Shown piece by piece: positions 4,916 through 43,599 of a stretch of 64,000 bases of DNA. The notes below the pieces were generated by a model. That model did no database searches and was not told the DNA's origin. It saw only the letters and a program-made list of their open reading frames with translations. The stretch lies in contig NW_002060951.1 of NCBI RefSeq assembly GCF_000150275.1, positions 2,384,323 to 2,448,322 on the forward strand, written 5' to 3'. The translations under genes and the position numbers were made by a program. This DNA is from Trichoplax adhaerens. Lineage: Eukaryota; Animalia; Placozoa. The stretch's first letter is position 1; every line of letters begins with the position of its first letter.

Positions 4916-20420
<15,505 letters not shown>

Positions 20421-24999: not shown

Positions 25000-25750
25000 T
25001 CCAGTGATGCATTACATACGGTACTGTAGTAATTGTAATAGTGTGTACTATACTGTACACTTGAAATATCTTTTACCGTGCGACTGTACTCTACTGTACC
25101 GTCTGTACGGTAAGAGTATGATTGCAGCTGGTTCGTCTGTGGTTACGAATTTACTGTACGTAATTGCTAGCGAATCTGACATGGAGGAATACGAATTCTT
25201 CCACCCCACTATCTTTAAACCGCAAGGAACAGTTTTTAGCGGAAAAATACAGATAATTATTCACATATCTCTTGATTTTAAGAGTTGGGGGCATATTACT
25301 GACCACACGCCCAGAAATCTATAAATAGCCATACACGCTACAGTATACAGTGTACAGTTCGTCGTACAAAATTTTAAAATACTGTAATCTTCGTACTGTA
25401 CTGTACTGTACTGTACTGTAGTGCTCAATAGAGACCCTACAGTACTGTACAGTACAGTGCTGTACTTTATACTGTACTGTACAGTACTGTACAGTATTCA
25501 CTATTCAGTACCGTTCCGTAGTACTGTACAGTACTGTACTGTACTGTACTGTAAAAGAAATCTCGATACAGCACAGTACTGTACATTAAAGCGTATAGCA
25601 GAGTTCTGACTAGTGAGCATTAGTGTTAGGATTGCTTTCATTTTGTCTGCATGTCTACAGTACTGTACAGTACTGTACATCCCTCTGTAATACTGTACTG
25701 TACTGTATAGTACTATACAGTCTATACTATACAGTGTACAAATGTGTTTT
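25000..25750. repeat. dense (TACTG)n/(CAGTA)n array field
   Basis: Many runs, e.g. 25393-25430 tactgtactgtactgtactgtactgtag and 25520-25552. The ORF-track entries 25004..25324, 25319..25501 and 25501..25773 are repeat-frame artefacts. Confidence 0.9.
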
Positions 25751-28881: not shown

Positions 28882-29009
28882 GTAAGAAACGAAAGCTACC
28901 TAACTAATTAATAAATATGCTATTTCTGAGATAATACTATTTTGTGTAAGTTTACAATAGAAACATTCGAAAACGTACGTATATTAATCATTACGGTAAA
29001 TTTCTCTAG

Positions 29010-29223
29010 TGTCGACGCAACGAAAGAAACTGATCGACTAGGGCGCCTTGTTAACCACAGCAGGAAGAACTATAATTCTATCAGCAGGCTCATACCTATA
29101 AACGGTAACCCTCACCTTGTATTGATAGCGTATAGGGATATTGGAATAGGTGAAGAATTATTATATGATTATGGTGATCATAGCAAAAAATCTATTGAAG
29201 CTCATCCATGGTTGGAATTATAA
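29010..29223 (+). CDS. KMT5A: KMT5A SET-domain terminal exon
   Basis: Acceptor ttctctag|t. Translation CVDATKETDRLGRLVNHS...HLVLIAYRDIGIGEELLYDYGDHSKKSIEAHPWLEL* aligns to human CVDATRETNRLGRLINHS...LILIASRDIAAGEELLYDYGDRSKASIEAHPWLKH*. Confidence 0.9.
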
Positions 29224-30163: not shown

Positions 30164-30171
30164 TTTATGAC

Positions 30172-30244
30172 TGGTCCGCATGGGGCTCGAACCCACGACC
30201 TTCGCGTTATCAGCACGACGCTCTGCCGACTGAGCTAACGGACC
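30172..30244 (-). tRNA. tRNA-Ile-type, anticodon GAU
   Basis: Reverse complement GGTCCGTTAGCTCAGTCGGCAGAGCGTCGTGCTGATAACGCGAAGGTCGTGGGTTCGAGCCCCATGCGGACCA folds as a cloverleaf: 7-bp acceptor stem, GCTC/GAGC D-stem, anticodon stem TCGTG/CGCGA, loop CTGATAA (U33, G34 A35 U36, A37), T-loop GTTCGAGC. About 80% identical to metazoan tRNA-Ile(AAU). Confidence 0.85.
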
Positions 30245-30409
30245 ACTCCGACAATGTACATTCTACAATACCATTAAAAACAAGATGTAGCGCTCAAACC
30301 TCACAAATTTCACCGGGATCGTAAAGACACGATTCATTCAATGAGTCACAGTATCGTACTGTAACTGTAAAACATTTAGCAACACTTAATATTTTTACGT
30401 ATTACATCA

Positions 30410-30540: not shown

Positions 30541-30885
30541 ATGGACGGTTTGTATTATATGCTGTATAATAACTTCTATATTTGCTGACTGTAATTGATT
30601 CAGCAAAACATAGACCTTAAAGACATTAAAGCATCGAAGCTTCAAATCCTAGAGCAGATACGTATATGTATATTTCTAAAGCGTTTGTTCTTTCCGCTGA
30701 CTGTCGTTGATTCAGCGAAATCTCCACTGTCCAGAACTTTCTAGAATATCGGGCGAAGTGCTTATATACTGAACTCTCGGCGCTGACATTTACACTTACG
30801 ATTTTACTCCGTTTCCTGTTTGGTCTCTGGAAAGACTTTCATTCATCAAATTTAAGCTTTTCAAGTATCCCCGTGTTCATCCGCA

Positions 30886-31036
30886 ATGTCTCTTATCGTT
30901 AAAGCTTATAGTGACGACGAAATCCGTCGATTCGCATTGGACCAGAACGTAACAACTAGTTACAACTATCTTTATCAAAAGATTGGCACTCTTTTTCCAA
31001 ATTTACTAAGAGATTCCTATGTACTAAAGTGGTGTG
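30886..31036 (+). CDS. SQSTM1: p62/SQSTM1-like autophagy receptor, exon 1 (PB1 domain start)
   Basis: ATG at 30886. Translation MSLIVKAYSDDEIRRFALDQ... aligns to human [25 protein letters not shown]. Donor tgtg|gtaagc. Confidence 0.8.
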
Positions 31037-31510
31037 GTAAGCACTTATAGCGTATTTAGCCTGATTAAGCATAGCTTTACAATATTTTTAATCATTCGAT
31101 TAATCAAACTCAGGATATGAAATTTAAAATTTTTGCTACTTCATGTATTGTATTGTGCTACATGCTCTGCGTATACCTTTACGCTCTTCATTGATACGGA
31201 ACCGATAGTTGAAAATTGAAAATGATGTTAAGAATTTTTCTTGACAAGGATACAGTCCTTAATCCTTCACATATTTAGGTTCTAGACACAGTAAAGATTG
31301 CTTGACTATCTTATCTCACTTTGTGTGGACTCTACTGTACTTACAAAATATATCCGCTTAAAAGAGTTATAATGTAAAAGCAACATCTACTTTGCTATGC
31401 TGCATCGTGCAGTAATTGGCTCTTAAGGACCATATACATTGTATAGGTGATAATCACTTCCATCGGTCACTTATCGTAATTTCGTTTCAAAATCGTATTT
31501 ACAATTGCAG

Positions 31511-31606
31511 ATACCGATGGCGACCTTATCACTTTTTCGTCTGATGATGAATTGATTGATGCTCTAAGTAACAGGAATGATGAAATCTTCCGCGTATACA
31601 TCAAAG
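31511..31606 (+). CDS. SQSTM1: p62-like exon 2 (PB1 domain end)
   Basis: Translation DTDGDLITFSSDDELIDALSNRNDEIFRVYIK aligns to human [34 protein letters not shown]. Acceptor ttgcag|at; donor aaag|gtaaac. Confidence 0.85.
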
Positions 31607-31850
31607 GTAAACCTAAGTGTGACACTTCTTGTTTTATAGTAATTATATGATAAGTCATAGACACAATGGATGGAAATTTCGGATATGTTAGTCTGGTCCG
31701 AAATTCCTTCGTCATTGTCAGTAAACACTGAAGGCACTTGGCTTATTTATTATCTTATACAAGTGATTAAAGATCGGCCGTAACAGTAACGATTCAGCGG
31801 TTATAAATCTTTTTAAAATTAATTAATATCATATTAAATTTAATATATAG

Positions 31851-32539
31851 ACAGGCCGAAAGCTCCTTTCCCTCAAGCAGAATATCCACCTCATTGCAAG
31901 GCTTGGTGGTGGGGATACCCTGGTCAGAAACCACGCTGTGGTGGAAGGCCGGAAGGGTCTTGTAGATGGCGTAATGGCTCTCGTAGATGGCAATCATGGA
32001 TGGAGGAAGCCCAACGTTGGAAAGATCACAAAGAACAGAATTCGTCATTAAATGAAAACACTAACGAATCTTCTGAGAATGAAAATTCTGGAAACGTTTT
32101 CAATGCGTTTTGTCCTCAACAAATCAACCCCGAATTTATTAACTCTTTTGCTGCTAATATGCTAAGATCATTTGGCGTTGATCTGTCAGGATTTTGTCAC
32201 ACATCAAACGAGAGTAAGCCGGATCAACAAAATAGAGAAAGTGATAAGGGTTGTGACAGAAAGGACGAAGAGACGAATTCTAAATTAGCCGATGGTGCTT
32301 GCGCAAGCGCTACAACTGCTGAATCTTCTGCAAATTCTAAACCATCACAGCAAATCAATCAAGATCATAATCCTGATATAAATGAGAACATCCAACAAGC
32401 CATAACTCAAATGGAAGCCATGGGATTCGACAATCAAGGAGGATGGCTTACTCGATTACTTGAGGCTAAAAACGGTAATATAAGCCGAGCATTGGAAGCT
32501 ATTTATCCCAACAGATCTAAAGATTCGGGTCTTCAATAA
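31851..32539 (+). CDS. SQSTM1: p62-like terminal exon (Trp-rich segment, low-complexity linker, C-terminal UBA)
   Basis: Acceptor atatag|ac. Trp-rich segment ...[16 protein letters not shown]... resembles human HFGWPGWEMGPPGNW. C-terminus [36 protein letters not shown] aligns to the human [41 protein letters not shown]. No CxxC ZZ finger is seen anywhere between PB1 and UBA. Confidence 0.85.
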
Positions 32540-40633: not shown

Positions 40634-40923
40634 CTAAAATAATTATATAACTTAAATATAAGAAAAAACAAATACTATTTTACCCGCATTCTAGATTAAT
40701 CTGGTACAGCACTGCATTTCCTTTGAATTGTAGCCAATACAATATCGACATTTAGCCAACTTAGCCGTAGATCGTGATAATATATCGCACTGTTAGCTGG
40801 TATTGAGTGTTTATTGATGAAATAATTACGATTATTACTCTACTAAATATATAATTAATAAATAGTAAGGTATTCATACTGTTATGACTGCGATAGGAGA
40901 TGGAATAGGTTTATGAGTTTTAC

Positions 40924-41410
40924 CTTTCTCACTAAAATCTCCAGTTACGAAAGCTCTTGTGCCATCACGACCGGAAAAAAAATTATATCCACCACCTTTA
41001 CCGTAATGTTCCTTTCCTTTGGTTACATCAAATACTTGGCCCAAAACAGCTAAATAGATTGGCTTCTGTGGATCATCACCGTTATATTGTTTTAGATCAG
41101 AAGCTGTAAATATCTGACCATCGGGCGCAATGACATTGCTGAGATCTGTACTAGATCCAGAACCAGTTCCGACAGCCGGTCGTTTAGATTCATCCTTATA
41201 TTTATTTTGATAGCTTTCGGCTGTATTCGCTAGTAAATCAACATCTTGTTTATAAGCGAATACACCTGCAGCAATCGCTGCTGCTAAGATAAAGATAGGA
41301 ACTAATTTTGATCCTTTGGAATTACTTTCTTGGTTAGTTTCTTCTGGTTTCTCTATCTTATCAGTTTTGGAGTCATCTGATTTGGCTGCTTTTCGTCTAG
41401 TTACAGCCAT
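40924..41410 (-). CDS. CYB5D2: CYB5D2 exon 1 (signal/TM region plus cytochrome b5-like haem-binding core)
   Basis: ATG at 41410. Translation ...FTASDLKQYNGDDPQKPIYLAVLGQVFDVTKGKEHYGKGGGYNFFSGRDGTRAFVTGDFSEK aligns to human [62 protein letters not shown]. Donor aaag|gtaaaa. Confidence 0.9.
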
Positions 41411-41720: not shown

Positions 41721-41990
41721 ACTAAAGTTTACAGTACTGCAACAGCAACCAGAAGAGCCAGAAGGGACTACGTAGATTACACTTGCGCAGATAATTTCAT
41801 TTAGCGCTTTAGACTTATTAAACAAGGAGTGAGTTGTGGTGCTGACCATTTTTTGTTCGTTTACACTGCATTGTACAGCTACACAAACCTTTCTTTTGTT
41901 CTCATTTGGGTTCTTTTCGTTCATGTTTTATTTATATTGCAGTTTTCCACTGCTTTTAAAACTGATATCGTAAGAAGAAATTCCAAGATC

Positions 41991-42162
41991 ATGGCACTGA
42001 CAGAGCTACAGCATGAATTGCTCACTGCGTTGCTCGACAGTGGTGTCAGTAAAGCAACGTTGATACAGGTTCTGACTATGCCAGAGCATTCGAATAGCAT
42101 CTCACGGGATTATTCATATATTGGAAATGGTGATGTTGCCTTTGGGACCTTTCATCAAGTTG
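41991..42162 (+). CDS. HNF1: HNF1-class homeobox factor, exon 1 (N-terminal dimerisation domain); 3' boundary uncertain
   Basis: ATG at 41991. Translation MALTELQHELLTALLDSGVSKATLIQVL... aligns to human HNF1A [30 protein letters not shown]. No donor gives a clean phase match to the next recognised exon, so an extra small exon or a different donor is possible. Confidence 0.6.
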
Positions 42163-43599
42163 GTTAATAATTGTAATTATATATGTATAACATATACAAT
42201 ATATTATAAATAATTATTCGTTTCGCAAATTAGCATTGAACCATACTGACCTATTATTTACTTGCGTTTTTTTAAATTTTCATGCGCTTAAGTGCTGGTC
42301 TTGCTGTATTACATGATACATAAGGTGCACTATAGTACTACACTACGTATAATTAATTAATACAACATCACTATAGAAATGATCATGATCACATTTCACA
42401 GCCGTCAACGACACAGTAGAAATATTCGTGTGGTATATATTTGTTTTCACGACTATATTAGTTGATAACATACAAAGTATATACAGTAGTACTGGTATCA
42501 TTTATTTAATATGCTACTATGGATTCCATTTTTACTTCCAGTCAATATTTATGGCTAGTCTACTTGATCTTATTACAGTACTGTAACTATAAACAGCACA
42601 TCGGCTCGGCGGGAAAGTGTTTTACATGGTTGTAATACGGATAAAATCCATAGTAAAGGAACGGGGTCGATATATTGGTTACTAATATCAATATTAGTAG
42701 GGTCAAGGCAGAATTGTGCGATAATGCATTTGAATGTGATTGCTAGCTCTCGAAGCTGCAAAGGAATACTTCATCTATTTCAATATACTGTAAAGTATAG
42801 CACGGACAGTATAACACAGAAATACCAATCCAAGCAGAGAAGTCGAACACAGCCAATGTACGTACATACTGTACAATAGTGTGCAATACTTAACCGTAGG
42901 CTGCTGCTTGTGTCAGGTAACGAGTATTAATCTGTGGCTGCACATTTTGAAGAGCGCGCTGGAATCGTTTCAACGTGTTTTAAATAGTTCGTAACCCATA
43001 TAGTAATCCCTACAACGTTTATTGCATTTATATTCCTAATAACTCACGCAGTATTTTAAAAATTTATCAATACATAATACTAGATCAGTCTATTAAATAT
43101 CTTTCAAGTTCTTCAAATAAAATTAGAGTCAGTTGAACATATATTTATATACAAAATTGAATGCGTCAACAGCTGTGAAATGTCTCTAGTATAGGGTCGT
43201 AAACGCTTGCAAGGCACATGGTAATATATAAACGTGCACAATCGTAATACGAAACAAAAGCGTAGTATAGGGCGGTAGCAACCCTTGCATAGGAGATCCG
43301 CCTTATCCGCAATATGCAATGGCAGATAGTGGCAAAAGCGAACAAAATCGTAAGGAGTACCGGTACTACGAGACGACTGTGAGTCTATAGTACTGTTTAT
43401 GCAGGAGACTGGTACATACTGTACAGCACACTGTAGGGTGTATCGCTATCTACAGATTTCTTGGCCGAGTGATCAGTAATACCTATGCCCCAACTCTTGA
43501 AACCAAGAGATATGTAAATAATTATAATCATCTGTATCTTTCCGCTAAAAGCTGTCCCTTGCGGTTTAAAATAAAGATGGTATGCAAATCGTTAATTTG

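Follow-up and report, generated by a model that had tools for sequence, protein, structure and literature searches.

In a 64-kb stretch of the Trichoplax adhaerens genome (contig NW_002060951.1; 'the window' below means this whole stretch of 64 000 nt) a three-exon gene on the forward strand encodes a 311-residue protein related to p62/sequestosome-1 (SQSTM1). The p62 protein is a much-studied selective-autophagy receptor, in which the ZZ zinc finger and the LC3-interacting region (LIR), the motif that binds ATG8, are regarded as core modules. The Trichoplax protein carries PB1 at its N terminus and a UBA domain at its C terminus; we consider it likely, with a probability of about 85%, that it is a genuine p62 orthologue, conserved in placozoans, which has secondarily lost both the ZZ and the LIR.

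Joining the three exons (Table 1) gives a 936-nt open reading frame (ORF). Both introns are canonical GT-AG introns of phase 1, and at the exon 1 donor a G is followed by gtaagc. The product is 100% identical to XP_002114993.1/EDV22449.1, labelled 'expressed hypothetical protein', where the word 'expressed' in the JGI label presumably stands for support by expressed sequence tags; the UniProt entry B3S4E9 names it 'Sequestosome-1' of Trichoplax adhaerens. From RDD41119.1 ('Sequestosome-1', Trichoplax sp. H2) it differs by a single residue, A239T. The same 311-residue product is thus found in independent annotations of two Trichoplax genomes, and both the gene and its name Sequestosome-1 are already public. 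Exon 3 has no internal intron and so offers no place for a hidden exon that would encode a ZZ or a LIR.

Table 1. Features of the Trichoplax adhaerens p62 locus (window coordinates) and amino acid identity among placozoan lineages
Feature	Position	Strand	Identity among placozoans	Remarks
Putative promoter module	30584..30746	+		140-300 bp upstream of ATG
Exon 1	30886..31036	+		Start codon and first half of PB1 (residues 1-50 plus 1 nt); K6, R14, R15 basic cluster; 90% amino acid identity with the other placozoans
Intron 1	31037..31510	+		474 nt, GT-AG, phase 1; stops in all frames
Exon 2	31511..31606	+		96 nt; second half of PB1, OPCA D51-x-D53-G-D55...SSDDEL, end ...FRVYIK
Intron 2	31607..31850	+		244 nt, GT-AG, phase 1; place where the ZZ exon comes next in mollusc p62
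Exon 3	31851..32539	+		Linker, UBA, tail and stop codon; corresponds to Haliotis exons 4-6
PB1			87-89%	
Trp/Cys-rich block, residues 84-118	31853..31957	+	60%	Post-ZZ region of other p62 proteins
Conserved block, residues 172-195	32117..32188	+	79%	QQINPExINSFxxNMLxSFGxDLS; counterpart of the E(Y/F)LxN(V/I)GxxVAxxLxP(F/L)GIDV block of all p62 proteins
Rest of linker			26-38%	
p62-type UBA, residues 262-301	32387..32506	+		Pfam UBA_5, PDB p62 UBA, AlphaFold2
UBA plus tail			84-86%	

Domain content of the placozoan proteins

A Pfam search assigned residues 5-80 to PB1 (E = 1.5e-8) and residues 262-301 to the p62-specific UBA_5 (E = 5.5e-11), with no match to ZZ (PF00569) even at E ≤ 10. The best PDB matches at both ends of the protein were to human p62 (PB1, E = 1e-9; UBA, E = 6e-8), while the NBR1 PB1 structure matched only weakly (E = 0.16). 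These results agree with a first-pass annotation of the same DNA, which had been made from the letters alone and had proposed a p62 with PB1 and a C-terminal UBA and with no ZZ, to be checked by Pfam and by comparison with p62 of related species; all the peptide strings that it had quoted are present in the three-exon product. It had overlooked the loss of the LIR.

The PB1 domain is of type AB, as both the basic face (K6/R14/R15) and the acidic OPCA face (D51/D53/D55/D62-E64) are kept; K6, R14, D51, D55, S60, S61, D62 and E64 are invariant across the aligned p62 homologues. In the UBA domain the sequence retains the MGF ubiquitin-binding loop region. Between the two domains lies a mostly disordered linker of ~175 residues with two short conserved blocks. 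AlphaFold2, run on a shallow alignment of 12 sequences, gave a PB1 beta-grasp fold with predicted local distance difference test (pLDDT) values of 81-90 and a UBA three-helix bundle with values of 84-87; residues 88-256 had pLDDT <50, with no cryptic zinc-finger fold, and a short helix (176-188) was modelled at low confidence within the second conserved block. The least conserved stretch among placozoans is residues 196-261, the segment equivalent to the LIR-bearing part of other p62 proteins (26-38% identity).

We looked for the ZZ beyond the annotated protein as well. A custom ZZ hidden Markov model (HMM) was negative on Trichoplax p62. When five ZZ domains (one each from human p62 and human NBR1 and three from invertebrate p62 proteins) were used as tblastn queries on the whole window, only chance matches were observed, the best with E = 0.23. 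The two introns have stops in every frame and contain no Cys-rich ORF and no CxxC module, and the window is free of N bases. We conclude that ZZ-like coding is absent across the 64 kb.

Two further modules were sought in the Trichoplax protein. Pfam found no four-tryptophan (FW) domain (PF16158), which true NBR1-like matches of our profile search do bear. No STGE of the Keap1-interacting region (KIR, DPSTGE) is present in the protein; the KIR is a feature of vertebrate-type p62 and is not universal. Its absence is to be expected, because placozoans are reported to lack Keap1 (PMC12285602).

The same p62 structure was observed in three further placozoan genomes or contigs. In a diverged placozoan metagenome contig (L001/L002) the same gene has an exon 1 that is 90% identical at the amino acid level, an exon 2 of 96 nt and an intron 2 of 254 nt, closed to translation, which is followed by one terminal exon. 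The third lineage (L004/L005) has the same exon structure with an equivalent intron 2 of 290 nt, also closed; its p62 is 72% identical to that of the second lineage and 53% identical to that of T. adhaerens in exon 3. In both added proteins Pfam detected PB1 and UBA_5 only and no ZZ, while the Haliotis rubra control gave a ZZ match with E = 6.7e-14; the comparison with related species therefore sustains the ZZ-less reading of the first-pass annotation. At the DNA level the alignable parts shared between placozoans are a tRNA, short motifs of the promoter and the three exons only. The introns could not be aligned, so that they hide no conserved exon.

The aligned tRNA is a tRNA-Ile with anticodon GAU, located at 30171-30245 on the reverse strand, ~640 bp upstream of the p62 start (ARAGORN; Rfam tRNA, 62 bits). 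In the other lineages (L001, 638-712; L004, about 144-285) this tRNA has kept both its strand and its distance from p62. Given this shared upstream tRNA-Ile(GAU), the three p62 loci are syntenic orthologues.

Comparison with p62 of other animals

The closest named relatives of the Trichoplax protein are p62 proteins of molluscs and cnidarians (Haliotis rubra, P0003; Hydra vulgaris, P0191; Oculina patagonica, P0188), all of which, unlike the placozoan proteins, keep the ZZ and an acidic LIR. The Haliotis gene (L003, QXJH01000221.1, 3001-7610) has six exons, and the first two of its introns agree with those of Trichoplax in alignment position and in phase (1); its exon 2 has the length of 96 nt seen in all three placozoan lineages, with the same phases, and the linker motifs are shared. 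In Haliotis a separate exon encodes the ZZ (exon 3 at 5057-5277; 221 nt, phase 1 to 0). The next exon opens with PFMVPPHCHQW, which matches PPHCxxW near the start of Trichoplax exon 3; the Trp-rich stretch of Trichoplax thus corresponds to the segment that follows the ZZ elsewhere, as the first-pass annotation had suggested for KAWWWGYPG. Placozoans have kept introns 1 and 2 and lack introns 3-5, which means that intron loss was concentrated in the 3' part of the gene.

Compared with human p62 (440 residues; PB1-ZZ-TB-LIR-KIR-UBA), the Trichoplax protein is much shorter. The two share a type-AB PB1, a p62-specific UBA, the Trp-rich post-ZZ segment and the E(Y/F)LxNVG...GIDV linker block; they differ in that Trichoplax has no ZZ, LIR or KIR and that its gene has 3 exons versus many in vertebrates. 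NBR1 (PB1-ZZ-CC-FW-LIR-UBA) resembles Trichoplax p62 in its N-terminal PB1, its C-terminal UBA and its role as a ubiquitin-binding adaptor, and is a possible PB1 partner, but its FW domain, ZZ and coiled coils (CC) have no counterpart in Trichoplax p62.

The profile search showed the combination PB1+ZZ+UBA_5 in cnidarian p62 (Hydra, Hydractinia and Oculina) and in all named mollusc, echinoderm, hemichordate, myriapod and fish p62 matches. It has been proposed that p62 goes back to a duplication, early in metazoans, of NBR1 with its ZZ; members of the NBR1 family are recognised by an FW domain combined with PB1 and/or ZZ (PMC9582228). With the ZZ present in cnidarian and bilaterian p62 as well as in NBR1, its absence in placozoans is, as judged from sequence comparison, due to a secondary loss that occurred in their stem lineage. 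The loss of the ZZ by simple removal or skipping of one symmetric exon was considered and rejected: as the Haliotis ZZ exon of 221 nt runs from phase 1 to phase 0, its clean removal would shift the frame. The ZZ must have been lost either by a deletion reaching from within the ZZ exon into the next exon or else from a different ancestral structure.

How rare is a p62 with no ZZ? We gathered 160 p62-like proteins, mostly the best 150 representatives out of 1.84 billion proteins, and 148 of them have a ZZ by the custom HMM. The exceptions include the placozoan proteins and placozoan fragments as well as two unnamed sequences (P0063 and P0133). Two others, a protein of hake (Merluccius, P0011) and a 246-residue marine transcript product (P0069), are likely to be products of isoform choice or annotation. 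Among the ZZ-less entries was also P0016 (MetaClust UPI0001BFCE53), a His-tagged synthetic construct with four tandem human p62 UBA domains; this entry shows that the representative library holds artificial sequences. Independent counterparts were observed in ascidians: according to Pfam the ZZ is missing in all four isoforms X1-X4 of Ciona intestinalis sequestosome-1 (P0049, P0161-P0163) and in C. savignyi H2YT48 (P0018). The Ciona proteins, with PB1 and UBA_5, are ~35-40% identical to the Trichoplax protein, and since Ciona belongs to a distant chordate lineage, its loss of the ZZ is convergent. A ZZ-less p62 is therefore rare but recurrent; the architecture, which had been called unusual in the first-pass annotation, is indeed uncommon but is not unique to placozoans. 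In a full-text literature search we found nothing on the architecture of placozoan or Ciona p62.

The LIR was searched for by its canonical core [WFY]xx[LIV], to which none of the p62 proteins from the three placozoans has a match outside PB1 (the LIR-free linkers are encoded at 31851-32386 in the window, at 2116-2600 in L001 and at 1606-2100 in L004). The core is present in all nine non-placozoan matches and in human p62, and an acidic LIR is located 40-70 residues before the UBA in every non-placozoan homologue inspected except C. intestinalis, those of cnidarians, molluscs, echinoderms and vertebrates included. Its forms include GDGWTLL (Haliotis), DGEWTMI, DSEWTVV, DDFIFV, DDDWTHL, NDFIFV (Hydra) and EEFVLV (Oculina). 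A wider survey relied on a crude detection of PB1 and UBA by regular expressions, which recognised only 42-74 proteins, so that it was used qualitatively only; of the 74 proteins recognised as PB1+UBA, a linker lacking the core motif was seen only in placozoans and in C. intestinalis, where the p62 linker has no [WFY]xx[LIV]. C. savignyi, in contrast, retains the LIR EDMEWTFV. The ZZ and the LIR may have been lost together in parallel in C. intestinalis, a lineage not related to placozoans.

Alternative explanations

Several considerations weigh against a p62 that is reduced in both respects. Shuffling of the linkers gave P = 0.34-0.50 for no match to [WFY]xx[LIV], which is not unusual; the lack of a LIR is thus to be read as an absence and as no evidence of selection against the motif. 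An ATG8- or FIP200-binding motif of a non-canonical kind could reside in residues 84-118 or 172-195. Two database searches brought up no second p62 paralogue with a ZZ in the rest of the genome, though they do not formally exclude one. Splicing of the gene is supported indirectly, by the public annotations ('expressed hypothetical protein' and the H2 model) together with cross-species conservation. Finally, polymerisation, ubiquitin binding and the lack of ATG8 binding are all properties that we infer from sequence.

The second of these points leads to an alternative that we think unlikely, namely that the same reduced p62 still acts as a direct autophagy receptor by means of a non-canonical ATG8- or FIP200-binding element in the EYPPxCxWW...RCGGRPEG block or in the QQINPExINSFxxNMLxSFGxDLS block. 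Both blocks are evidently constrained, with 60% and 79% identity among placozoans against 26-38% elsewhere in the linker, and the second is conserved in p62 across animals; we know of no well-defined function for it. Neither block resembles a known class of ATG8-binding motif, and in other animals the second block accompanies a canonical LIR, which makes it no obvious substitute for one.

It is considerably less probable that the ZZ has been eroded in place, the Cys/Trp block at residues 96-120 (H97/C98/C112/C120) being a degenerate ZZ, perhaps still able to bind metal or a ligand. In a MAFFT alignment C98 and C112 do line up with cysteines one and three of the ZZ, and in T. adhaerens they are spaced alike, by 14 residues; all three placozoans have these two cysteines, in a block better conserved than the sequence around it. 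Yet across placozoan lineages the spacing between the cysteines varies from 11 to 14 residues, there are no CxxC pairs, H97 is replaced by F, and C120 by S in one lineage, Pfam gave no ZZ in T. adhaerens (E ≤ 10) or in the other placozoans (E ≤ 1), and the AlphaFold2 model has pLDDT <50 across residues 96-120. In Haliotis, moreover, the PPHCxxW motif matches the start of the exon that follows the ZZ exon, and in other p62 proteins it is after the ZZ that the Trp-rich and RCGGR-like stretches come. On account of the variable spacing and residues, the negative Pfam and AlphaFold2 results and the match of PPHCxxW to the post-ZZ exon we rejected an in-place relic.

An artefact of the gene model, in which a ZZ exon was missed owing to an alternative isoform, a gap in the assembly or an intron called wrongly and the true protein would be PB1-ZZ-UBA, seems to us very improbable. 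ZZ-less models elsewhere can be products of isoform choice or annotation, as with the Merluccius 'unnamed protein product' and the 246-residue protein mentioned above, and the splice support for the Trichoplax model lies in annotation and conservation. Against this stand a window with no N bases, two introns closed in all frames, the best tblastn match at E = 0.23, the agreement of two Trichoplax annotations on the 311-residue product, and two further placozoan lineages with the same three exons and nothing conserved inside the introns. We regard the possibility of a missed exon as largely refuted.

That the protein might be no p62 orthologue at all but another PB1-UBA protein, e.g. one derived from NBR1 by truncation or one arisen by convergent fusion, is hardly credible: two of the four p62 hallmark modules are missing and p62 itself derives from NBR1 according to the literature (PMC9582228), but out of 1.84 billion representatives the 150 that match best are all p62-like, the named ones (apart from the synthetic P0016) being sequestosome-1, Ref(2)P or unnamed/uncharacterised proteins, the UBA fits the p62-specific UBA_5, the PB1 matches p62 (E = 1e-9) far better than NBR1 (E = 0.16), there is no FW domain, two intron positions with their phases are common to mollusc p62, and the p62-specific linker blocks are kept.

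Upstream region and predicted function

Upstream of p62 we observed the 20-nt sequence GCTGACTGTnnTTGATTCAG twice (30584-30603 and 30696-30715) and nowhere else in the window, with 0 copies expected by chance. It holds a TGAYnnnGC-like core similar to an antioxidant response element (ARE) or half of a Maf recognition element (MARE). The second copy is followed by the heat-shock-element (HSE)-like GAAnnTTCnnGAA at 30734-30746, while at the first copy there is only a partial GAAGCTTC. In the second placozoan three GCTGACTGTnnTTGATTCAG copies are located upstream of p62 (L001, 846-866, 1006-1026 and 1141-1161), two of them followed by the HSE-like GAAnnTTCnnGAA; in the third lineage one copy of GCTGACTGTnnTTGATTCAG aligns. 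The combination of GCTGACTGTnnTTGATTCAG with the HSE-like element suggests a putative stress-responsive promoter.

Another sequence found in the window, the palindromic 12-mer TACTGTACAGTA, has 13 copies, versus 0 expected from shuffles, at 2901, 3028, 24411, 25443-25672 (5 copies), 30455, 43658, 54017, 59452 and 61365. It lies in AT-rich 'actgtac' repeat clusters and occurs also in intron 1 of the L001 gene (about 1593-1622); it is probably a genome-wide placozoan repeat. Judged by reading of the translations only, the neighbouring ORFs resemble a C-terminal fragment of a SET domain (28942-29223, forward strand; ..GEELLYDYG..), a cytochrome-b5/neuferricin-like heme-binding protein (40874-41410, reverse strand) and an HNF1-like N-terminal dimerisation segment (41829-42167, forward strand; LTELQHELLTALLDSGVSKATLIQVL). 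The neighbours of p62 look like ordinary animal genes.

The observations are best explained by a single-copy placozoan p62/SQSTM1 orthologue of reduced form, most likely a PB1-polymerising, ubiquitin-binding scaffold. In human p62 the basic and acidic PB1 faces drive head-to-tail polymerisation; as both interaction faces are kept in Trichoplax, such polymerisation should persist, presumably through K6/R14/R15 on one side and D51/D53/D55/D62-E64 on the other. With its ubiquitin-binding surface kept, the UBA domain should gather ubiquitinated proteins into the polymers or into condensates. The ZZ of mammalian p62 binds RIP1 and N-degrons; a protein with no ZZ should escape being switched on by N-terminal arginine degrons and would forgo ZZ-dependent partners (RIP1 in mammals), if the mammalian ZZ is a guide. 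With no LIR, direct docking to ATG8 is probably impossible, and a partner or an unrecognised motif would be needed: the route to autophagosomes or to the proteasome may lead through a partner, for which a PB1-binding NBR1 is a candidate, or through a conserved linker block. The only NBR1-like sequences that we retrieved (P0211 and P0212) have three ZZ domains and FW, and seemed too distant to serve as queries. Taken as a whole, the proposed mechanism, a polymerising ubiquitin scaffold with neither N-degron sensing nor direct ATG8 docking, appears somewhat more plausible to us than not.

One could speculate further that placozoans have a 'minimal p62', a PB1-UBA scaffold of ubiquitin condensates doing without ATG8 docking and N-degron sensing, with the ZZ and the LIR either dispensable or replaced by a new docking motif in one of the two conserved blocks of the linker; we offer this as a tentative idea, about which doubt prevails. 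If it is true, the abilities to polymerise and to bind ubiquitin would be the indispensable core of the family, and C. intestinalis p62, with neither the ZZ nor a LIR that can be recognised, would be a hint that both modules can go together.

The practical value of the finding is modest, as the gene is annotated, domain loss is common in evolution and a loss in parallel is seen in ascidians; this reduced member of a known family is mildly surprising to a specialist and is no new kind of system. Still, a non-bilaterian animal lineage keeps p62 under purifying selection with neither the ZZ nor the LIR. Placozoan p62 would thereby be a natural separation-of-function allele, in which one may see what PB1 polymerisation and the UBA do alone, and it would sharpen the reconstruction of how p62 and NBR1 came to divide their labour.

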